Virus record (IMG/VR): IMGVR_UViG_3300012348_000111
Coordinates: 41,102 to 105,101 of that record
Length of the DNA stretch: 64,000 nt
DNA from: a virus
Direction: 5' to 3' (one strand)
Positions 1-50,691 of the stretch are shown piece by piece. Position 1 is the stretch's first letter, and each line of letters opens with the position of its first letter. The notes under the pieces were generated by a model that worked only from the letters and a program-made list of their open reading frames with translations, did no database searches and was not told the DNA's origin. Both the position numbers and the translations under genes were made by a program.

Positions 1-2395
1 AAACTTTTATTTTCCTAAGTTCATTTTCTTCTACGTAAAAATAATCTACTTCTCTAGTAACAAAGGAGTACATCTTATGCCTGTCTATAACAGCTCCAAA
101 TGTTTCTCCGTTTTCTTTATTAATTCTTTCTTGAATTTTTTGAAGACGATTATTCATATTTTGTAGTTCAGGAATAACACCTTGCATTCCTTTTAGAATA
201 TAATCGGCTACAATTCTTACTGTAGGAGTATCTGTTAAGAAAGCACTATCAAAAGATTGTTTAAACCAATTGTTCTTGCTTTTTGGATCTAGAAGTAAAT
301 TTTTTATGTCTTCAGGACCTTTAGGTAATTCGTTTAACCTTTTATTAATTTCTTTTATTTTTTGAGTTTTTGCTTGAGCAGGTATATTTTCTTTTTCAAT
401 TTGTTTAATTTGATTTTTTAATTCAAAAGTCAACTCATCTATACCATTTTTAATACCAGCATAAAGTTCTTCACTTAAAGGTATTAGAGTACCTCTATTT
501 GATTCTTCTTTAATAATATTAATCGTATCTTGAATTACTTTAATATTATAGAATACTAAATTGTTGTTTCGTTTCTGTCTGTCTTCAGTGGTAATTGCAT
601 CTATAGTTTCCCTTACTCTTTCAGGAAACATATTTTTTAAGGCATTTATTTGTTTTTCAAAAGCTTCAGCTTGTTGATTTGCAAAATAAAGTGCTGATAA
701 TTTAATTTGAGAAGGTAGTTCATCGTTTTCTTTATTTTCTCTTATCCTATGAACGACATTTCTTAAATGAAGATTCGATGTTGTTAGATAGTTAGCAAGC
801 TCGTAGTAAGCTTCTGCTACGTCTTCTTTAGTTACAAGATTTTTAATTTTCTCTAAAGACTTTGCAGATTCATCTAGAAGTTTACTTTCTCCTTTTAATC
901 TTAATTTTTTAGTAGAGAAACGAATAGCATTTAAATCTTTGTCTGTTATTTTATCAGCTAATGTTTTTACTTTTTCTCCAAAAGACTGTTGTTCGTTAGT
1001 AGGTAAAAGTTCTATAGCTTCTTTAAACATTCTTCCTTTATCTTCAGAAGTAAAACGAGAAAACATATATTCAGCAAACTCTGGACTATATTGTTTTTCT
1101 ATTAAATCTACTTCTTCTTTACTTAAAAGACTGTCTACTAAGTTACCAATGTTTGTTTTTTCACTTACTTCAAATGAAAAAAGATTTTTAAAATAGTCGT
1201 ATATTTTTTGCCAGATAGTTTTAGAATCTCTATTTCTATACTCTACATCAGCTTGTTTTCCTAATTCTGTTGTTATTACCTCTTCCCAGAATGAATCACT
1301 CAATCCATATTCAGGATATAAGGCCTTTACAATAGCATAGGACGAACTTATTGGATTGTCCTTATGTAAGTCTTCAATTTCTTTTTTAAGTTCGTTAAAT
1401 AGCTCAGGATTGTTTTGTCTAATACTTCTTACTAAGATGTGACCAAATTCATGCCAAGGTGTTTCACTTGTTATAAGGTTCGGATTAAACATTATTTCTC
1501 CAGTAGTTAGATTGATTTTAGCTACTTGATCTAAATAAGGATTATAAGACCAAGTTGTTCCTTTAAATTTAGTGCTTAGGAAATTTATTACTTTACTAAA
1601 CTTTTCAAATTGAGGATTATTTACAGCAAGTCCTGTATGGAATCTAGAATCAAACCATTGACCATCGAAAGGTAATACTTCACCATCAACAACAATAGTA
1701 TTAGATTCTTTCATTAAATTTAAGAAGTCAGCATCTTGATTAGCTAATGCTTCAAGAGCCTGCATTGCTTCTATTTCTGCATATAATGATTCTTCTTGAA
1801 CTTCATCTATAACTTCAATTAGTTTTTCATAATATCTATTGTTAACTGTAAGAACAAGTTCGTAACCACCATCTTCCAAACTTTCTAGTTTTGCTACTAC
1901 TGGTTCGTGAGTAAACCCATAGGTTTTATTTAGATTTGTTGCAATAGCATATGCATACCCTCTAAAGTTTTTATATGATTTATTTTTAGTGTCACCTCTA
2001 AATGTTTTATCAGTAGGTTTTATAAATACTCTATATCCATCTATTGTAACTGATTCTCTAGATTCTAATGGTCTTATTTCCCTATCAAAAATTAATCTTT
2101 GAATATATTTAGATTTTTGTGCAAGACTAAGCTCATTGTACTCTATATTGTTTGATAATTCTAAAATTAAATCTTTTACTTTTTCTTGCTGTAAATATTT
2201 AGAAATGATTTGTTCTTCTACTTGTTTAGAGTACATAGTAGAACGCATTTGTTGAGAAACAAAGTTCTTAAATCCTTCTATATCTTGTTTATTACCTAAA
2301 AAATTACCAGCAAACTCAAAAAAATGAGATTTAAAGTATTCATTAAACTCTGATTGAGAGTATTTTTTATTATTATATGTTATTATGCAAGCCAT
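1..2395 (-). CDS. Large virion cargo/polyvalent protein with zincin metallopeptidase domain (3'-truncated by window edge)
   Basis: Absent from the ORF track. Hand translation from ATG 2395 gives MACIITYNNKKYSQSEFNEYF..., open to position 1. Contains TPWHEFGH (~1440) and a downstream EEVITT, an HExxH...E zincin signature. Confidence 0.85.
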   Translation of the reverse strand, partial: MACIITYNNKKYSQSEFNEYFKSHFFEFAGNFLGNKQDIEGFKNFVSQQMRSTMYSKQVEEQIISKYLQQEKVKDLILELSNNIEYNELSLAQKSKYIQRLIFDREIRPLESRESVTIDGYRVFIKPTDKTFRGDTKNKSYKNFRGYAYAIATNLNKTYGFTHEPVVAKLESLEDGGYELVLTVNNRYYEKLIEVIDEVQEESLYAEIEAMQALEALANQDADFLNLMKESNTIVVDGEVLPFDGQWFDSRFHTGLAVNNPQFEKFSKVINFLSTKFKGTTWSYNPYLDQVAKINLTTGEIMFNPNLITSETPWHEFGHILVRSIRQNNPELFNELKKEIEDLHKDNPISSSYAIVKALYPEYGLSDSFWEEVITTELGKQADVEYRNRDSKTIWQKIYDYFKNLFSFEVSEKTNIGNLVDSLLSKEEVDLIEKQYSPEFAEYMFSRFTSEDKGRMFKEAIELLPTNEQQSFGEKVKTLADKITDKDLNAIRFSTKKLRLKGESKLLDESAKSLEKIKNLVTKEDVAEAYYELANYLTTSNLHLRNVVHRIRENKENDELPSQIKLSALYFANQQAEAFEKQINALKNMFPERVRETIDAITTEDRQKRNNNLVFYNIKVIQDTINIIKEESNRGTLIPLSEELYAGIKNGIDELTFELKNQIKQIEKENIPAQAKTQKIKEINKRLNELPKGPEDIKNLLLDPKSKNNWFKQSFDSAFLTDTPTVRIVADYILKGMQGVIPELQNMNNRLQKIQERINKENGETFGAVIDRHKMYSFVTREVDYFYVEENELRKIKV

Positions 2396-3027
2396 ATTTG
2401 ATTATTTTTTATTTTATAAATTGTTGTAGTTGAAACATTAAACTTATTGGCTAACTCTTTTACTGGTTTATTAGAACTTCTAATAAAAGAAACTTTATTC
2501 CAATTCAATTTAGCAGAATTATTATTTTCTCCTTTTTTAGATTCTGATAAATCTTTGGCTCTCTTTTGAGCAGCTAATTTAAGGTTTAATTTATGTTCTT
2601 CTGAAAATATTTTTCTCTTACCAGATTCAGACATTTTATTTTTAGTTTCTTCTGAAACTGTAAATCCATAACCTCTTACAGCTTTACCTTTTCTTTTTTC
2701 TGACATCTTTTGTTTAGTTTCATCTGATGCTTTTAAACCATAATTACTTTCTGCAATTAATCTAATATTAAACTTATTACTATACTGGTCTAAAAACCAC
2801 TGTTCTAATTTGATACAATATTCAGAAGGACAAGTAGCTAACACTTTAAAATCTATATTCTCAATTCCATATTTGTTTACAAAGTTTTGTAAGAGTTTGT
2901 TTACATGAAAATTAGACCTTAATTTATCAAAATGTGTTTTCTTTCTTAAAGAAAGATTAGTTGCAGAGCCTATATAAACTCTATCATCTATTTTAGAAAA
3001 TATTCCGTAAACTCCTGAATTTAACAT
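2383..3027 (-). CDS. GIY-YIG homing endonuclease with NUMOD3 repeats and C-terminal HTH
   Basis: GVYGI...VYIGS motif; SDETKQKMS and SEETKNKMS NUMOD3 repeats; LANKFNVSTTTIYKIK HTH. Confidence 0.9.
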   Translation of the reverse strand: MLNSGVYGIFSKIDDRVYIGSATNLSLRKKTHFDKLRSNFHVNKLLQNFVNKYGIENIDFKVLATCPSEYCIKLEQWFLDQYSNKFNIRLIAESNYGLKASDETKQKMSEKRKGKAVRGYGFTVSEETKNKMSESGKRKIFSEEHKLNLKLAAQKRAKDLSESKKGENNNSAKLNWNKVSFIRSSNKPVKELANKFNVSTTTIYKIKNNQIWLA

Positions 3028-3812
3028 ACTCTATCGATTTTACCAGTTTCTATTAATCTGTTTTCTATTTGCATAGAAGACTTACTTATAATAAATTGTC
3101 TAAATTGCTCATAAGTTCCATATTTAGCAAATTCACTATTTTGAAAAGCCATATAATCTTTGAAACCTTGAATATCAGCTTTAGATGAAAGTATGTAGAT
3201 TTGTTCTGGTTCAAATACTATATATTGATGAGCAAAATCTATATCCCCTACTATTCCATTATCAGCAAGTTTATCTATAGTTCTCAGTACCGCATCTCCT
3301 TGTCTATCCTGAGCCTGGGGATTATCAACTAGTTTTAAATTTTTAGCATTTAAAATCGCAGAAAAAACCTTTGCTGTTTTAACTGCATTGTATTCTTCTA
3401 AAGATTCAAACTGACTAAAGTCTATAGAACCTTCTGCATAAAAATCTGCAGTTTTTTTACTATCAGTAAAGTAAATTCCTTGGGTAGATTGTTTTGTATT
3501 TTTACCAGCTTGGTTAATATCAAAACTATCAAAGCGACCATCAGGTGTTCCATGATAAACTATTTCTTTTACTTGGCTGGTTTTAAAAATAGTAGAAAGA
3601 TATTGCATGTATTGAGCTTTAGTACCAATAGCTGCAAGGTCTGGTGACTCTTTAAATACACTATCAATAGCTTCCATTTTCCTTTTAAATGAATCTATAA
3701 CATCTTTATTTTTACTAATAGATGTAGCAAATTCATTTTTATTATTAATAAAGTATTCTTTAAATTTTTCTTCAGAATACTGTTTCCCTTTATATGTTAT
3801 TATACAACTCAT
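3021..3812 (-). CDS. ADP-ribosyltransferase-like protein (ART-PolyVal type), probable virion cargo
   Basis: VYHGT...FDSFD...GIYFTDS...A.FY...QYIVFEPEQI motif series typical of phage polyvalent ART domains. Confidence 0.75.
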   Translation of the reverse strand: MSCIITYKGKQYSEEKFKEYFINNKNEFATSISKNKDVIDSFKRKMEAIDSVFKESPDLAAIGTKAQYMQYLSTIFKTSQVKEIVYHGTPDGRFDSFDINQAGKNTKQSTQGIYFTDSKKTADFYAEGSIDFSQFESLEEYNAVKTAKVFSAILNAKNLKLVDNPQAQDRQGDAVLRTIDKLADNGIVGDIDFAHQYIVFEPEQIYILSSKADIQGFKDYMAFQNSEFAKYGTYEQFRQFIISKSSMQIENRLIETGKIDRVC

Positions 3813-4474
3813 GCTTTTTTCCAGATTTTATTATTTTTAATTTGGTTTATGGTAGCTCTTGAACAACTAAATAATTCTGCTATTTCTTTATCTGTTTTAC
3901 TACCCACTAAAGATTTAATTTTTTTAACTTGTTCTATTGTAAGTTTAGAATATTTACCACCATTGGCTTTGGCTTCTTTCATTTTTTGTTTAGTTTCTTC
4001 ACTTATTATTCTACCAGTTAATGCTTTACTCATTTTATCAAGAGTTTCTTGTGAATGAGTGTAATTACTTCTATCTACTTTCTGTCCAGTTTTAGCTTTG
4101 CTAATATTTAACTTAGCTTTTTCTGACATTTTATAACCTCTTTTTCTGTTTGCAGGAGGTCTTCCTACTGTTTGAGCTAAGTTTAATTCAGGTTTTAGTT
4201 TATCTACAAACCATTGTTCAGCTTTTAATAAATACTCTTGTGGGCATTTAATTAGTATTTCAAATTTAAGATTTTCTATTCCTAATTTTAAACAAAGTCT
4301 TTGAAAGTATCTATTAAAATGTTTTTGTTTTAGTATAGCTCTGTTGTGAGCTTGTAATCTTTCTTGTAAATTATTAGTAGAACCAATATAAAATCTGCTA
4401 TCATTATCAAAGTAAAGTTTATAAATAGCACAAACTCCTGTATATTGCCCTCTTTGTAAATCTTTTACGAACAT
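3809..4474 (-). CDS. GIY-YIG homing endonuclease with NUMOD3 repeats and HTH
   Basis: AIYKL...FYIGS motif; HSQETLDKMS and SEETKQKM repeats; IAELFSCSRATINQIK HTH. Paralogous to 2383-3027. Confidence 0.9.
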   Translation of the reverse strand: MFVKDLQRGQYTGVCAIYKLYFDNDSRFYIGSTNNLQERLQAHNRAILKQKHFNRYFQRLCLKLGIENLKFEILIKCPQEYLLKAEQWFVDKLKPELNLAQTVGRPPANRKRGYKMSEKAKLNISKAKTGQKVDRSNYTHSQETLDKMSKALTGRIISEETKQKMKEAKANGGKYSKLTIEQVKKIKSLVGSKTDKEIAELFSCSRATINQIKNNKIWKKA

Positions 4475-40029: not shown

Positions 40030-41559
40030 TTAGAGACGTGGGAATTCTTTGATGATCACTGTTTTGGTAGGATCTTCCAAGAAAATACCACAGAAGTCTT
40101 TCATGATGTAAGTAGAGTAAGGATCTTTACTTGCTACTACAGTCTGTGATTGACCGAATCCAGTAGTACCAGGGATATAGTGATACTGCATGTTAGGACG
40201 AGTAGACAATTTTACCTCACGGATACCAGCACCTTCTTGACCAGATACATCCAAGATAATGAAAATTGGAGGAGTCTTCTTGTTAGGACCTAATTCCAAG
40301 AAAGTAGCATGCATGTTCAATTGTTCTAGTTCTACGAACTCAACTGGACCAGTTTCTACAGTCATGAAGTGATCGAATTGGAAAGCATAACCTTGCTTCA
40401 AGCGATCTTTACCATCCAAGAATTTCTCAGCGTCAACCATAAAGTTTTGACCATTGAAGTCTTTGCGAATAGCAGTAGATGCCAATTCCATACCTGAACG
40501 GTTAGTGTAAATTTTAACACGACGATCAGCCAATTTAACACGGTTATAGAACAAGTCTCCGATAGCTGCACGAATCAAGTTCAAAGAGAATTGACCTTTA
40601 TCGTAGTAGATAACGTTACCTAAGTGAAGTTGTTGCCACAAACCAGCTTTTAAACGGGTAGGACGACCTTTTTCATCTACGGTGTTACCTTGACGACCCC
40701 ACATCAACATGTTTGCTTTCATACGCATCATTTCCATACGTAACAAACGAGATACTGTAGGTTCCCAACCAACGATCTTAGTTTTTTCAGCAGTAGCGTT
40801 AGGATCAGTTACAGAGTAGTAGGTGATATCCATAGGATTACCAGTAGCATCTGTAGGCATACCAAGTTTGGTTGCATCAGCCCAGTCAGTAAGAGTGTGC
40901 TCTACACCATATTGGTTAAGAACATCAGCCATAACTTCCAAGTTACCATCAAACAAACCAAGTCCAGAGAATGAAGTGGTGTACTCACCCAATACGTTAC
41001 CAATTTTGAAGTATTCAGTACCTACTGTCAAGAAACGAGCAGGAACAGCATCAGCAGCAGTTGCACCAGCAGCACGACATTTAAATTTGTAACCATTTTG
41101 ATGACGCTCACCTTCAGATACGATTTGAACCTGAACTTCTTGCTCATAACGATGTGCAGTGATGATATCGTTTACAGCAAATGCATTCTTATCGAATACC
41201 AATTCAAATTCAGCTCCATCAGCACCTTTAGCTGAATCGCTAGCACCAAAGCCTACAATAACTTTAGGAAGTTCTGCACGCTTCTTAATTTTGTAGGTAA
41301 AGATACCATTAGGATCATTTACCATGAAGGGTTTCTCAGACTTCATTACTGTATCCAACAAATCGTTAGAATACAATTGAGTGTCTGTGAAAAGACGCAA
41401 CATCATTTTGTCATACTGATCAGGCTTTGTACGCAACATAGTTTCTACAAAGTTCTTTTCAGTGAATTTACCCAAGGCGTTCTTACTATAGAACGAGCTA
41501 GTCATGTGGGCATTGGCTATCACACGACCATTAACTCTTGGAATGTTTTGATTAGGCAT
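40030..41559 (-). CDS. Major capsid protein
   Basis: 509 aa; LMWG...AGLWQQL and GIFLEDPTK motifs; biased codon usage; position after portal and scaffold. Confidence 0.9.
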   Translation of the reverse strand: MPNQNIPRVNGRVIANAHMTSSFYSKNALGKFTEKNFVETMLRTKPDQYDKMMLRLFTDTQLYSNDLLDTVMKSEKPFMVNDPNGIFTYKIKKRAELPKVIVGFGASDSAKGADGAEFELVFDKNAFAVNDIITAHRYEQEVQVQIVSEGERHQNGYKFKCRAAGATAADAVPARFLTVGTEYFKIGNVLGEYTTSFSGLGLFDGNLEVMADVLNQYGVEHTLTDWADATKLGMPTDATGNPMDITYYSVTDPNATAEKTKIVGWEPTVSRLLRMEMMRMKANMLMWGRQGNTVDEKGRPTRLKAGLWQQLHLGNVIYYDKGQFSLNLIRAAIGDLFYNRVKLADRRVKIYTNRSGMELASTAIRKDFNGQNFMVDAEKFLDGKDRLKQGYAFQFDHFMTVETGPVEFVELEQLNMHATFLELGPNKKTPPIFIILDVSGQEGAGIREVKLSTRPNMQYHYIPGTTGFGQSQTVVASKDPYSTYIMKDFCGIFLEDPTKTVIIKEFPRL

Positions 41560-45299: not shown

Positions 45300-47306
45300 T
45301 TAAAGTCTAAATGGGGAACGTGTTTGTCTAAAAAGAGATGGTTTTTTTGTAGATCTAAAATACTCTTTCATACGAGTATCATCATCATTGTTTCTAATTA
45401 CTACTTGAGTATTTAGTGATTTTGCCATAGCAAGTGTTAAGCCGAAAGAAACTACTCGGTCAACGTTAAGTTTAGGGGTAAATTTAATAAGTTCTTTAAG
45501 TAAGAGTGGGTCTAATATTCTAGACACACCTAATCTTTCTCTTGTTGTATTTCCTTGTTCGTCTCTTTCTATATCAATTACTTCTGTTAGATATTCTATG
45601 ATTAAGGAAAGGATATAGTTTTTTATATCTTTAGTCATGTGTATTCCATAATCACGATTAACAGTAGAGTTAGGATGTATATCGTTAAGAAAAGTAGGTG
45701 TTCTTTCGAGAAGTCTTTGTCCTTCATTTTTATCTACGCAATGCTGTATAAAACCATAGTCCATGTTTTCGACTAATGATTTAGCGTTATAGTATTTAAG
45801 TAATAGTTTGGTTGTTTCATACCAGGTATCTATCTTTTTAGGACGACCCGTATAAGAAGCTACTACTATGTTTTGCCAACCTTCACCAGCTAATCCGTGT
45901 ACTCTTTTGTATATGTAGGTTGAACCTAAAGATGTAGAGTAATGAGCTTGAGATTGTTTGTATGGGTCAGTTCCAGCTGTGTAAAGACCATAGGGTGCGT
46001 CCATTAAAGGATATTCCCATATTTGAATACATCCTTCTAGATTATCTGAAGGTTTGGTTGGAAAGTTTTCTACAGGTTTTTTATCTGTAAATTTATGTCT
46101 CACTTTACCTTCAACATCTAAGTATAATTCTACGTTATCAGCTTTAATGTCTTGATTGATAAGTTTACTTAGTTGTTCTTGAAGTAAGTCTACTGGAAAA
46201 ATGTTTTGAGATAATTCTAAGAAACACTCTTCATGTGTTAGAGGATAATACATTACCTCTTTAAGGTAAGCCTCTAGACCACTAGATTTCTTTGTTTGTT
46301 CTCTAGTCTTTAGGATCTGTTCTTTACCTTTTTCTTCATCTGCTATCCAAATAGTTATATTGTCTAATTCAGATGCTTCTTTTACTTCTAAATGTAATCC
46401 TAATGGTACTGGGGTTTTAGGTACTTTAAGAGATTTTGTTCCTGGTACAAACAAACCATATGACTTTCCTGTTTCATTTGTTTCAACTGAAAGAAAGTTA
46501 TAAGCTTCTGGATTATTGAAGAGTTCTTCAAGATCTCCTGCTTTAGTCATGTCTCCAGAAGTTCCAATAACAATAGGAGAACAACGCCATCCATAAGGTG
46601 AGTCAAAACAAGGAATGGTCGCAGCAAGACAAGCTAACATATCTCCTTTACCTGCTTCTTCTAACATAAAAGAAGAAAGTGTAAGACCTGCTGCTGCTTC
46701 CGTATTGTTTCCTTCATTGAAGTTTCTTACGTGAATCTTTGACCATTCATGTCTTTGGTTGGTTTTTTTGTCTTTATATCCAAGAGTTACTTGTCTTTTC
46801 CAATCGTCTTCTATACGAGGAAATCTAAAATACTCTGGTAAGTTTCTAAGAGTTAAATCTACGGCTTGAGTAGTATTGTTTAAGTCAGGTTGATTTAGAG
46901 CTGAGATAAGGTGATCTCCACCTTTAAGAGTAATTGCTTTATGTGCAATATAAGACGATGTGAGCATAGTCTTTGAAATACGACGACTACCTACAATAAC
47001 AACACCTTTCTTTCCATCTTCATGTGTTTCTGCTCTTGTGATAGCATTATCGATTTCAAAGTAAGTATCCCATAGCTGAGGTCTACCTAATTGACGAACT
47101 ACTCTTTTACCTTGTTGTATATCTAAGTAAAGAGAAGCATAGTTTAAATGCCAATAAATAAAAGGAGAAAAATAAAAACCATTGATTGTTATACCTTCAG
47201 TAATTTTTTTATCTTCATTTTCCCAAAATGCAGTATACTCCCTTGATTCTGGATCAGGGATTGATTTAACATTTATTAGAAATTCCGAACTATTAAAATT
47301 ACTCAT
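45300..47306 (-). CDS. terL: Terminase large subunit
   Basis: GSRRISKT Walker A, MLEEAGK Walker B, AGTDPY nuclease motif, NVDRV. Confidence 0.92.
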   Translation of the reverse strand: MSNFNSSEFLINVKSIPDPESREYTAFWENEDKKITEGITINGFYFSPFIYWHLNYASLYLDIQQGKRVVRQLGRPQLWDTYFEIDNAITRAETHEDGKKGVVIVGSRRISKTMLTSSYIAHKAITLKGGDHLISALNQPDLNNTTQAVDLTLRNLPEYFRFPRIEDDWKRQVTLGYKDKKTNQRHEWSKIHVRNFNEGNNTEAAAGLTLSSFMLEEAGKGDMLACLAATIPCFDSPYGWRCSPIVIGTSGDMTKAGDLEELFNNPEAYNFLSVETNETGKSYGLFVPGTKSLKVPKTPVPLGLHLEVKEASELDNITIWIADEEKGKEQILKTREQTKKSSGLEAYLKEVMYYPLTHEECFLELSQNIFPVDLLQEQLSKLINQDIKADNVELYLDVEGKVRHKFTDKKPVENFPTKPSDNLEGCIQIWEYPLMDAPYGLYTAGTDPYKQSQAHYSTSLGSTYIYKRVHGLAGEGWQNIVVASYTGRPKKIDTWYETTKLLLKYYNAKSLVENMDYGFIQHCVDKNEGQRLLERTPTFLNDIHPNSTVNRDYGIHMTKDIKNYILSLIIEYLTEVIDIERDEQGNTTRERLGVSRILDPLLLKELIKFTPKLNVDRVVSFGLTLAMAKSLNTQVVIRNNDDDTRMKEYFRSTKKPSLFRQTRSPFRL

Positions 47307-48331: not shown

Positions 48332-48842
48332 ATATTTCTTTGGTTTTTTGTGAAAGTAAAATATGTCTATTTATATTGTATTCGTATTGATCTTTCGATA
48401 TAGCTCCTTTACTGTTCATTTTATGTAAACGAATTATATATGTGTCTAGTGTTTTTACAATCTTATCATAACGATTTAAAATAAGATTATATACTCCAGT
48501 TAGTTTTTTTACTGACTCTTCGCCTGCAGCAACTCTATCTTTGAGTACATTGTAATATTCCATTATGGAAGTTATCTTTTCAATATAGACTCTAGTTGCA
48601 CTCATTCCTTTTTTAGGATTAAATCTAATTTTACCTAATCCTTTTAACATTGCTTGAATAGAATCTCCTTCCAATAGTTCTTTAACTGTATTTTTAATGT
48701 ACCAAGAATAGACTGAATCTATTTGGTCTATAGTTAAAGGTTGTTGAGTTGTTTTTGAAGCAGCCGCAACTTCAGAATATAAACCGTAAGATTTAAATTC
48801 TACACCTCTGTCTTTGTGGTTAGGAGTATCGTATTTAAACAT
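48273..48842 (-). CDS. Hypothetical protein with HU/IHF-like N-terminus
   Basis: LLEGDSIQAMLKGLGKIRF resembles the HU beta-hairpin. Confidence 0.5.
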   Translation of the reverse strand: MFKYDTPNHKDRGVEFKSYGLYSEVAAASKTTQQPLTIDQIDSVYSWYIKNTVKELLEGDSIQAMLKGLGKIRFNPKKGMSATRVYIEKITSIMEYYNVLKDRVAAGEESVKKLTGVYNLILNRYDKIVKTLDTYIIRLHKMNSKGAISKDQYEYNINRHILLSQKTKEIYESIQRISTTHEEWVEKYR

Positions 48843-49186
48843 TAGTCCTTTTTAGTTTCTACACCTAAAAGTAAAACTAAACTAATTGCTTCTTTATCTG
48901 CAGGAACTAGTTTTCTGTTTACTTGATTTTTTTCAAGAACACCTAGTTTTCTAAGTCTTGTGATTCCATTAGAAATTACTTGTACAGATGTGTTGTTTTT
49001 TTCAGCAAGAATCTGTTTTACATTTTTGTCTAGTTTTCCATAATAAGATACATTGGCTAAAATATTAGTGTATAAGTCAGATAGTCTGTATCCAGCAAGT
49101 CTTAGAATAATATCTATATATGCTTGTTGGAATGCGACTCCGTCATCATACTTTCTAGCTATTTTAGCTGATTTAACGGCTTTCAT
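48842..49186 (-). CDS. HTH DNA-binding protein
   Basis: LAEKNNTSVQVISNGITRLRKLGVL wHTH pattern. Start moved to ATG 49186 because the promoter overlaps the track's start. Confidence 0.65.
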   Translation of the reverse strand: MKAVKSAKIARKYDDGVAFQQAYIDIILRLAGYRLSDLYTNILANVSYYGKLDKNVKQILAEKNNTSVQVISNGITRLRKLGVLEKNQVNRKLVPADKEAISLVLLLGVETKKD

Positions 49187-49214
49187 TTTGATTGGTTTAT
49201 TTTTAAAATTAAAC

Positions 49215-49244
49215 CAAATATACAATCGTAATAAAAAAAGTCAA
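49215..49244 (-). promoter_or_regulatory. Bacteroidota-type -33/-7 promoter
   Basis: TTG-N19-TATATTTG upstream of the packaging operon. Confidence 0.75.
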
Positions 49245-49367
49245 GTATTATGTTATAAAACTTTAATATTATTTATTATAAAATGAAAGGTAATTTAAAA
49301 GATTAACAAATATTGTTATGTTGAAATCTACAAAAAAGATGAGTTTTCCACAAACGAACGTATTATC

Positions 49368-49398
49368 TTGAACTCGGTAGACCATTGTTGTATATTTG
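49368..49398 (+). promoter_or_regulatory. Bacteroidota-type promoter for the ncRNA
   Basis: TTG-N20-TATATTTG. Confidence 0.65.
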
Positions 49399-49399
49399 G

Positions 49400-49710
49400 A
49401 CCGACACCGTTACTCAACGATCATCTGTGAGGGCCAAAAGGTAGTTAGCAGATCAGAAGTCGGATAGTAATCTACAGAACTGAAATAATGTTCAACCATA
49501 GTGGATGAGGTTTCTCCGATAGTGTCGAAAAAAGTGTTCATTGAAAGTTACAGTATTGCGACCTACAACTAATAGACCGTAGGCAATGAGTGGACAAAAC
49601 GCAAATTCAAAGAGTAATCTTTGTCTGGTAGAACGACGACTGTAATATAAGATGAATGTTAAAATAGAAATATCTCCTTAATAGGGGGAAAATCTTCTAT
49701 TTTCTTTTTT
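49400..49710 (+). ncRNA. Structured non-coding RNA of unknown family
   Basis: Promoter (TTG 49368, TATATTTG 49391-49398); nested helices CGACAC/GTGTCG, TCGGA/TCCGA, TTACAGT/ACTGTAA, CCTAC/GTAGG, GACAAA/TTTGTC; 3' hairpin plus U-tract; no ORF. Confidence 0.65.
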
Positions 49711-49765
49711 CACAATCTCGAGGAGGGCTACATTAAGCCATATCATTAATCTAATATATAAAACA

Positions 49766-49903
49766 ATGTTAAGTATTAAACTACATTTTCCACATGATAG
49801 ATTTGCTATTGGTTGGGAAATATTCTATCCAGACGAAGAATATAATTCTACAGTAATCATATTGTTTTTAACAGTAGTTACATTAGAATTTGAATTTAAC
49901 TAA
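49766..49903 (+). CDS. Small hydrophobic protein (45 aa)
   Basis: MLSIKLHFPHDRFAIGWEIFYPDEEYNSTVIILFLTVVTLEFEFN; A-rich leader; followed by a terminator. Confidence 0.6.
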   Translation: MLSIKLHFPHDRFAIGWEIFYPDEEYNSTVIILFLTVVTLEFEFN

Positions 49904-49907
49904 AATA

Positions 49908-49940
49908 AAAAAAGCTATGACAATTAAATCATAGCTTTTT
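49908..49940. terminator. Bidirectional terminator
   Basis: AAAAAAGCTATGA-CAATTAAA-TCATAGCTTTTT between convergent units. Confidence 0.7.
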
Positions 49941-50034
49941 ATTCTTTTACTACCCCACTGCTGTTGGAGAAGTAGACTAAGACCTATAGACAATGTTTTT
50001 AGACTATGTTGGATCGCTAATAGTTACGTCTAAT

Positions 50035-50691
50035 TTAGATTAAGTCTTTTAATGACTTTAACATTTCAATTAATTTAGGATGTGGATACACATCTACTTT
50101 ATCTGTTCTAACAGAGTTATGAGTAAATATTCCATTTTCTCCTTTTAATGCTCTAGTAGATAATTCCCATATATCTTCATTATATTCTACTGAAATACCA
50201 TATACTTCTGACCAATATAATAAAAGTTTTTTTACACTTTCAATTTGTGCATCAGTATAGTTCTCATAATATTTAAATCCTCTGTGTGGAGTTTCTAATT
50301 CACATACATCAGAAGCAGGAACTTCTTTATTTAAATAATTATAGAACTTACCATTCTTCAATGTAAGTTGTCCCCAGTTTGTTATCTCAATACCTATAGA
50401 TGTTTTATCTAAGTTTTTGTATTTGAGATCTTGGATACCAAAATGTTTATTTCCAAGGCCCAAATGATAAGCCCAGAATTTCGATGGAAAACCTTGTACA
50501 ATTTCACCTTTTTTATCTATTACAACGCAAGTACCTACAGTAACGTTATCTGCTTTCCACCAATTCCAAACACTATCTGCACTAGGTCCAGATGCTGTAT
50601 GGTGAAGATAGATTTGAGTTTTCTTAACTGCTTCTTTATTAAAGTCTGAAAATTCCACCATTCTTAATGGAGGTAACTGATGTTTAGGCAT
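50035..50691 (-). CDS. N-acetylmuramoyl-L-alanine amidase (endolysin)
   Basis: LHHTAS...WAYH...SIGIEI...YTDAQ...TH...K.D amidase_2 motifs. Confidence 0.88.
   Translation of the reverse strand: MPKHQLPPLRMVEFSDFNKEAVKKTQIYLHHTASGPSADSVWNWWKADNVTVGTCVVIDKKGEIVQGFPSKFWAYHLGLGNKHFGIQDLKYKNLDKTSIGIEITNWGQLTLKNGKFYNYLNKEVPASDVCELETPHRGFKYYENYTDAQIESVKKLLLYWSEVYGISVEYNEDIWELSTRALKGENGIFTHNSVRTDKVDVYPHPKLIEMLKSLKDLI

Follow-up and report, generated by a model that had tools for sequence, protein, structure and literature searches.

A self-contained gene for a two-domain structured RNA is an accessory cassette in one clade of crAss-like phages

A gene for a structured, non-coding RNA occupies positions 49403-49710 (plus strand) of a 64,000-nucleotide (nt) stretch of viral DNA, hereafter the window, which represents the right 64 kb of the 105-kb IMG/VR virus record IMGVR_UViG_3300012348_000111 (positions 41,102 to 105,101). 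The unit is self-contained, comprising a promoter box, two domains of several helices each and a 3' hairpin followed by a U-run; the RNA core measures ~245-320 nt, plus the 3' hairpin. The source is an uncultured crAss-like phage, the hallmarks being an open reading frame (ORF) of 4245 amino acids (aa), the terminase TerL, tail-fibre-like genes and an amidase, all in the window. An earlier note, made from the letters of this DNA, had proposed a stand-alone two-domain non-coding RNA at this place, and the proposal holds: the fold covaries, the promoter is conserved, and there is no match to Rfam, to tRNA or to transfer-messenger RNA (tmRNA). The RNA appears to form a previously undescribed family without membership in any known one, and it is an accessory cassette in an otherwise collinear region of one clade of environmental crAss-like phages.

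The structure is supported by comparison across many homologues. Retrieval from IMG/VR on the basis of TerL gave 34 loci whose TerL is ~80% identical, and the interval is conserved in 29 of them, on the strand opposite TerL and ~2-2.5 kb upstream. One hairpin alone occurs as CGUU/AACG, CACU/AGUG, CACA/UGUG and CAUU/AAUG, and RNAalifold finds two-sided changes in 27 of 51 pairs. We built a covariance model (CM) of 245 positions and 55 pairs, and gathered further members with the anchored pattern GAAGTYGG-N30-60-CCGATAGTG-N50-75-GTGGACA, which yielded 38 viral, 47 metagenome and 2 bacterial-genome stretches. The CM matches, in viral and metagenome contigs, number 87 (54 distinct), with E values between 1e-84 and 7e-27. 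Across the 54 distinct sequences, standard pairs fill 96.3% of pair cells and compensatory changes affect 40 of the 55 pairs; the covariation whose absence, according to the earlier note, would refute the RNA is present. The covariation score is 0.51 versus 0.22 in shuffles, of which 0 of 500 reach 0.51, and sliding the partners by 1-3 columns leaves at most 12 compensatory pairs and a score of at most 0.096. Moreover, G-U pairs are frequent on the plus strand only (the first pair of P4 in 54 of 54 sequences, the inner end of P6 in 41), and the plus strand is therefore the functional RNA strand. Mutual-information analysis adds one good pair, at the base of P5 (A2 columns 119-143, four pair types), and finds no pseudoknot; a further signal, 134-203, was rejected since it is incompatible with a pair that covaries fully and probably reflects phylogeny. 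Five high-GC metagenome stretches caught by the pattern were likewise discarded as coding DNA without a CM match, and blastn finds no match to the RNA interval in 50,697 phage records.

Projected onto the window, the CM alignment resolves the following elements.

49403-49526, plus strand: domain 1
49403-07/49522-26, plus strand: P1, CGACAC/GTGTCG, mostly invariant, few two-sided changes
49408-11/49416-19, plus strand: P2, CGTT/AACG, many compensatory changes
49423-28/49448-53, plus strand: P3, ATCTG/CAGAT, many compensatory changes, enclosing a conserved GAGG/(G)GUA internal loop
Domain 1, between P3 and P4, plus strand: invariant AGAA joiner
49459-64/49515-20, plus strand: P4, TCGGA/TCCGA, mostly invariant, few two-sided changes
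49466-69 (AGUA) opposite 49507-10 (GAGG), plus strand: internal loop of domain 1
49470-75/49501-06, plus strand: P5a, AUCUAC/GUGGAU
49477-80/49490-93, plus strand: P5b, GAAC/GUUC, all 4 pairs compensatory within the window's subfamily
49527-49535, plus strand: A-rich linker GAAAAAAGU, an AAAA-rich joiner kept in all homologues
49536-49657, plus strand: domain 2
49536-37/49656-57, 49541-42/49651-52 and 49548-54/49639-45, plus strand: P6 in three segments, with a conserved internal loop GAA / UAUAAG
49556-60/49600-04, plus strand: P7, UUGCG/CGCAA, every pair compensatory
49562-66/49579-83, plus strand: P8, CCTAC/GTAGG, every pair compensatory
49583-99, plus strand: invariant single strand GCAAUGAGUGGACAAAA of domain 2, between P8 and P7
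49608-13/49618-23, plus strand: P9, local hairpin CAAAGA/UCUUUG, every pair compensatory
Domain 2, plus strand: conserved joiner UGG...A(A/C)(A/G)AC, in the form UGG...AAAAC

In the window's subfamily P5 is a long arm, 100% paired in 10 sequences and rich in compensatory changes, while the loops of P8 and P9 vary among homologues. Eight of the helices drawn in the earlier note are supported, namely those of domain 1 (P1-P4 and P5b) and, in domain 2, GTTCATT/GATGAAT, TTACAGT/ACTGTAA (P6) and CCTAC/GTAGG (P8). Three other pairings fail. In ATTGC/GCAAT, the GCAAU side is invariant and unpaired, and the covarying helix is P7; instead of GACAAA/TTTGTC, the local hairpin P9 stands; and the suggested inter-domain pseudoknot TCTAC/GTAGA falls because TCTAC sits in the covarying P5a, GUAGA not being conserved. 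The alignment thus predicts two independently closed multi-helix domains, two AGUA/GAGG internal loops, which may correspond to loop-E/S-turn motifs, and a 17-nt invariant single strand that reads GCAAUnAGUGGACAnAA. What is conserved is thus a three-dimensional architecture and not an antisense stretch.

The same 17-nt unpaired strand, along with the other conserved joiners, could in principle serve a small regulatory RNA that base-pairs with phage or host mRNAs. However, complements of the conserved single strands in the phage's own genome amount only to 9-10-nt words, at chance level, and typical seed-pairing regulators are much smaller and less structured. We consider such a role very unlikely.

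As for the transcription unit, three elements frame the two domains.

49347-49354, plus strand: conserved upstream element TCCACAAA, ~40-55 nt before the -7 box, between two divergent promoters
49368-49398, plus strand: RNA-gene promoter, with a -33-like TTGAAC (49368-73) and a Bacteroidetes-type -7 box TATATTTG (49391-98)
49661-49703, plus strand: 3' nested hairpin (outer stem 49661-69/49695-703, inner stem 49673-79/49683-89), followed by CUUUUUU to 49710

The RNA also stands out by its composition, as had been noticed at the outset, with a GC content of 0.37-0.43 over 49300-49600 versus 0.19-0.30 in the flanks. A promoter of its own, divergent to the TerL operon, had been claimed as well, and conservation supports it: of 56 distinct homologue contexts, 53 have a TAnnTT(T/C)G box 0-3 nt ahead of the model start, and the remaining three read TAATATTG. 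A sigma-70 scan scores TTGAAC-17-TATATT at 49368-49396, overlapping the TAnnTTTG consensus. In the intergenic DNA of this phage, taken over the whole genome, TAnnTTTG occurs at 29 sites against 10.4 expected (2.8-fold enrichment), which points to a Bacteroidota host, or a Bacteroidota-type host sigma factor, driving many phage genes. The nearest cultured TerL relative infects a cyanobacterium, despite this Bacteroidota-type enrichment. Farther upstream, most homologues have a (T/A)TCCACAA(A/T)-like word at a comparable distance, in some of them inverted (TTTGTGGAT). The 22 matches to it elsewhere in the genome are scattered and form no recurrent motif; the TCCACAAA element may be an operator or UP-like site common to both divergent promoters.

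At the other end, a sequence-variable hairpin directly follows domain 2 in most homologues. The terminator proposed earlier corresponds to the hairpin with CUUUUUU (49661-49710), which is probably an intrinsic terminator or the RNA 3' end. A simple terminator scan did not list this hairpin, its loop being too long for that scan. Transcription itself, and the exact ends of the RNA, are what these signals lead us to expect. A hairpin and U-run placed directly after domain 2 would also suit a cis-regulatory leader, that is, a riboswitch or attenuator for a downstream gene on the same strand, and small ORFs do occur there in some phages: one of 45 aa in the window (49766-49903) and membrane-like ones of 86-100 aa in the L019 and L028 groups. 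Yet in the largest groups (L031, L005, L159, L174, L205 and others) the end of a convergent gene lies directly after the RNA, and the same-strand ORFs that exist are sporadic and mutually unrelated, quite unlike the gene that a riboswitch would control. We give a leader function very little credence.

The RNA encodes no conserved protein. A 43-aa minus-strand ORF (49410-49541) does exist, contrary to the earlier statement that the interval holds none, but it is not conserved; among the homologues no ORF is conserved on either strand and no three-base periodicity is seen, and a protein-coding reading was rejected on the lack of a conserved frame and of codon periodicity. Nor does the RNA belong to a known family. 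None of the 4227 CMs of Rfam 15 matches at gathering score anywhere in the window; the models tested include those of pRNA, RNase P (bacterial A/B, archaeal and type T), 6S, tmRNA and signal recognition particle RNA, and also ROOL, GOLLD, HEARO, raiA, group I/II introns, riboswitches and small ribozymes. At E<=10 within 49150-50050, the core RNA is overlapped only by a chance-level match to a snoRNA model (10.9 bits), and a match to the small RNA GibS (20.9 bits, E = 2.6, minus strand, 49661-49776) overlaps the 3' hairpin. At E<=5 nothing falls over the RNA in 12 diverse homologues, so the Rfam check proposed for this DNA turns up no family in the window or in these relatives. ARAGORN detects no tRNA or tmRNA gene in the window.

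Several associations with particular systems were considered and rejected. Retron msr-msd RNA and other reverse transcriptase-associated RNAs find no support in the 105-kb record, which has no match to PF00078 (reverse transcriptase). For OMEGA/reRNA (TnpB, IscB), the only PF07282 match is sub-threshold (17 bits), lies ~58 kb away and contains a stop. An IS110 bridge RNA would call for PF01548, which has no match in the genome. The words GAAGUC, GGUGAAA and ACAGAA are suggestive of RNase P RNA, but the covarying topology is incompatible with it, in keeping with the earlier view that no tRNA, tmRNA or RNase P signature is present: GUCGGA sits in a local helix with UCCGAU, ACAGAA lies inside domain 2 between P8 and P7, GGUGAAA is absent from the window's subfamily, and the sole possible AGU/A(C/U)U contact is without two-sided covariation. 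Mimicry of ribosomal RNA (rRNA) was rejected too. The segment GAAGUCGGA..AGUAAUC resembles 16S rRNA 1330-1352 and CUCAGAGGUGAAA..CCGAUAGU resembles 5S rRNA 46-77, with local-alignment scores within or marginally above the shuffled range, and the segments are covarying stems or subfamily-specific.

A complex fold with invariant unpaired strands is what might be expected of a catalytic or self-assembling RNA, either a new ribozyme or a multimer in the manner of ROOL and GOLLD, and such an RNA might have a connection with tRNA biology. Both ROOL and GOLLD occur in phages, near tRNAs, and in distant relatives 12-17 tRNA genes lie upstream of the TerL operon, roughly at the place of the RNA.

L227 (Lbo-JY46) 209-4174; L228 (phi4:1) 141-2267; L273, L286 and L304: tRNA arrays, TerL identity 30-40%

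The array of phi4:1 is divergent to the TerL operon. These arrays are a lead and no more. Each of the 11 genomes compared has 0-3 tRNA genes, a number that bears no relation to the presence of the RNA. Against catalysis or self-assembly stand the lack of a match to any Rfam ribozyme, RNase P, ROOL or GOLLD model, the misfit between the RNase P-like words (GAAGUC, ACAGAA) and the covarying topology, the much smaller size of the RNA compared with ROOL or GOLLD, and the absence of palindromic conserved loops, those of P8 and P9 being variable. We judge the idea improbable. ARAGORN calls a tmRNA with a 27-residue tag in one RNA-plus relative (G009:C1:75544-75890, IMGVR_UViG_3300008113_004623), which may be a false positive.

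The distribution of the RNA among related phages is informative. A TerL profile search brought in further relatives. By the CM, the RNA is missing from an entire subclade whose TerL is 75-77% identical, from L232, from L269 (62%) and from every relative at 33-40%; the CM likewise detects nothing in the TerL neighbourhoods of Leptolyngbya phage Lbo-JY46, of Cellulophaga phage phi4:1 or of ~36 IMG/VR relatives with TerL identities of 33-62%. In RNA-minus phages the genes follow one another on one strand (~480 aa, 327/400 aa, 146 aa, then a gap of 110-150 nt, then 126 aa, 186 aa, 124 aa, 67 aa, 105 aa and TerL), and in RNA-plus phages a unit of 700-830 nt sits in that gap in the opposite orientation. 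Anchoring by blastn delimits a clean indel of ~680 nt, with 775 nt between anchors in L031 versus 93 nt in L026; L258, L256 and L264 entered the same comparison, and the flanks are homologous. Of the 35 distinct sequences in a maximum-likelihood tree of TerL, 25 are RNA-plus, a pattern that takes no fewer than two gains or losses to explain. The order of the TerL operon is kept in all homologues with enough flank, the RNA always being beside this same operon, and this fixed position suggests inheritance with losses rather than mobility. The unit has what is expected of a phage moron, that is, its own promoter, a 3' hairpin and an indel between genes that are adjacent in relatives.

This distribution bears directly on a role in DNA packaging, which the earlier note had entertained. 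An RNA like that of phi29 (pRNA), bridging portal and terminase, would be well placed here, always at the divergent start of the operon with TerL and portal. However, when whole records were searched with the CM, none of five RNA-minus relatives that share this operon and have 76-80% identical TerL carries a copy (one of these records is 100% and another 92% complete), while five of five RNA-plus records, used as a positive control, each carry exactly one. It follows that this packaging machinery should be able to produce virions without the RNA, and a packaging or pRNA-like role is strongly disfavored. There is no Rfam pRNA match, and TerL here is a full-length large terminase (PHROG 6681). 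We regard a packaging RNA as extremely improbable.

A protein partner was sought within the cassette and beyond it. Most RNA-plus lineages have, immediately upstream of the RNA and on the same strand, a conserved ORF of 87-90 aa, with 31 distinct variants diverging down to ~32% identity.

L031:3703-3975, minus strand: example of the 87-90-aa ORF, which occurs at 30 other loci

Its product is modeled as a three-helix bundle with a disordered acidic tail (predicted local distance difference test, pLDDT, 79.6). The RNA could be the partner of this ~90-aa protein, in a small ribonucleoprotein or an antitoxin- or chaperone-like pair, the window's subclade having lost or replaced the protein; the ORF is, after all, gained or lost together with the RNA in the indel. 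But it is missing from the window genome and its subclade (win, L002, L014, L029, L222, L182, L190), where the RNA is equally conserved, and the RNA is in consequence the only constant cargo of the cassette. Furthermore, the RNA's own promoter box stands between the ORF and P1, and the protein has no Pfam, PHROG or PDB-fold match, hence none that would suggest RNA binding. A pairing of this kind seems to us distinctly unlikely. Beyond the cassette, a co-occurrence test of 6 RNA-plus and 5 RNA-minus genomes turned up no protein family whose presence follows that of the RNA; the power of this test is limited by the concentration of the RNA-minus state in one clade. One co-occurring candidate was rejected because diverged homologues occupy the same site in RNA-minus genomes.

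G000:C1:8141-10033 (outside the window; L368:1142-3034): 630-aa ORFan without Pfam or PHROG match

This ORFan evolves fast, at 30-46% identity among genomes of the clade and 25-29%, over the C-terminal half only, in the RNA-minus clade.

In the window itself, the RNA lies in the interval 49226-50034, the region's only large ORF-free gap, flanked by the first gene of the TerL operon and by the amidase gene, both on the minus strand. The operon runs leftwards from this gap, and the neighbours of the RNA gene are small ORFs, the amidase and TerL.

45300-47306, minus strand: TerL, full-length large terminase (PHROG 6681 match)
49215-49222, minus strand: -7 box (TAnnTTTG) of the divergent promoter of the operon leading to TerL, from a motif scan; context, outside the RNA
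50035-50691, minus strand: amidase gene, adjoining the RNA gap

For the gene at 48842-49225 (minus strand), the listed TTG start at 49225 is probably wrong: because a TAnnTTTG box lies at 49215-49222, the start is probably the ATG at 49188, behind the gene's own promoter and ~170 nt from that of the RNA. On the 3' side of the RNA, the 45-aa ORF at 49766-49903 (plus strand) stands alone, with no counterpart kept in homologues. It is followed by a strong bidirectional terminator with a 13-bp stem (49909-49940), and the RNA unit and the amidase gene therefore each own a stop signal in the window. In L019, L032 and L098, the RNA is followed by AACCA(A/C)(C/T)AA repeats, reminiscent of the AACCAACC gene-start tags of this genome, and then by a small membrane-like ORF (MNTAFISILLL...).

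Taking these observations together, we tentatively favor, at a little under an even chance, a folded RNA that acts in trans by binding a host factor, or a phage factor common to all these phages. Trans action through the fold is the most likely mode because the architecture is conserved, the RNA appears dispensable for the virion and no phage gene tracks it. Host RNA polymerase would transcribe it from the Bacteroidetes-type promoter, starting at or just before P1, and the transcript would end at its own 3' hairpin. The RNA would then fold into its two closed domains and sequester or scaffold the factor in question, and infection would be modulated on particular hosts, for example through a decoy against a defence or RNA-metabolism protein. 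The function would accordingly lie in host interaction rather than in assembly. A protein sponge or anti-defence decoy, as had been suggested from the start, would be compatible with the accessory, moron-like distribution, and we see the decoy or counter-defence version of trans action as possible, if rather doubtful. Bolder, and somewhat less likely again, is the proposal that the RNA is the first known case of a class of morons made of RNA alone, with which crAss-like phages that infect Bacteroidota counter defences or take over the host, or else that it represents a new class of natural ribozymes. If the former were true, a folded RNA of ~250 nt would disable a host protein by structural mimicry or tight binding.

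Several points weigh against a trans-acting folded RNA. It had been anticipated that folding no better than shuffled sequence would speak against the RNA, and the single-sequence fold, which recovers most of the helices drawn in the earlier note, is indeed no better than shuffles (z = -1.5 on the plus strand, -1.1 on the minus strand), while the covariation beats all 500 of its shuffles; the case is thus open on this sequence alone, and the comparative evidence is strong. The anchored pattern fixes three motifs, so their invariance is partly a matter of ascertainment, although 24 homologues collected through TerL alone show the same invariance, including that of GUGGACA. We found no copy in bacterial genomes, the only 2 pattern matches in 185,579 species genomes being GC-rich coding DNA without a CM match, and this absence rests on one exact-pattern scan; beyond the TerL-derived set, more divergent members and possible bacterial homologues could be missed by the exact pattern. 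Most RNA-plus lineages carry the ~90-aa gene directly upstream, and the RNA might work with that protein.

To our knowledge, complex-folded bacterial or phage RNAs of at least 250 nt, with strong covariation and outside known families, are rare, and OLE, ROOL, GOLLD, raiA and HEARO each opened new biology. Close relatives with and without the present RNA in an otherwise collinear region provide a natural experiment, which speaks strongly against a part in the core virion or in packaging and suggests that the RNA serves the interaction with the host. The RNA's compact size suits structural and pull-down study, and it may bring to light an RNA-based strategy among crAss-like phages, which are highly abundant but poorly understood.

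Compared with known systems, the RNA is like ROOL, GOLLD and, probably, the stable RNAs C and D of the tRNA region of phage T4 in being phage-borne and stand-alone, with no adjacent protein that would explain it. It shares with ROOL and GOLLD a complex fold supported by covariation, and with stable-RNA loci a location where related phages place tRNA genes. Unlike ROOL and GOLLD, however, it has no match in Rfam 15, consists of two tandem closed domains, is confined to one crAss-like clade and measures ~250-300 nt versus ~580 for ROOL and ~800 for GOLLD. Like the pRNA of the phi29 family (RF00044), it is a structured RNA encoded by a phage, with its own promoter, beside packaging genes, but it differs in its architecture, in the lack of an Rfam match and of conserved intermolecular loop-loop complementarity, and in its absence from sister phages with the same packaging operon. 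If the decoy reading is right, and only then, it would resemble RNA anti-CRISPRs and pseudo-ToxI mimics as an accessory phage RNA titrating a host protein, albeit one that lacks a repeat structure and does not resemble CRISPR repeats or ToxI. With phage morons it has in common a self-contained unit in opposite orientation, with its own promoter and terminator, and a clean indel between homologous flanks; in contrast to them, its location is fixed and its constant cargo is an RNA rather than a protein.

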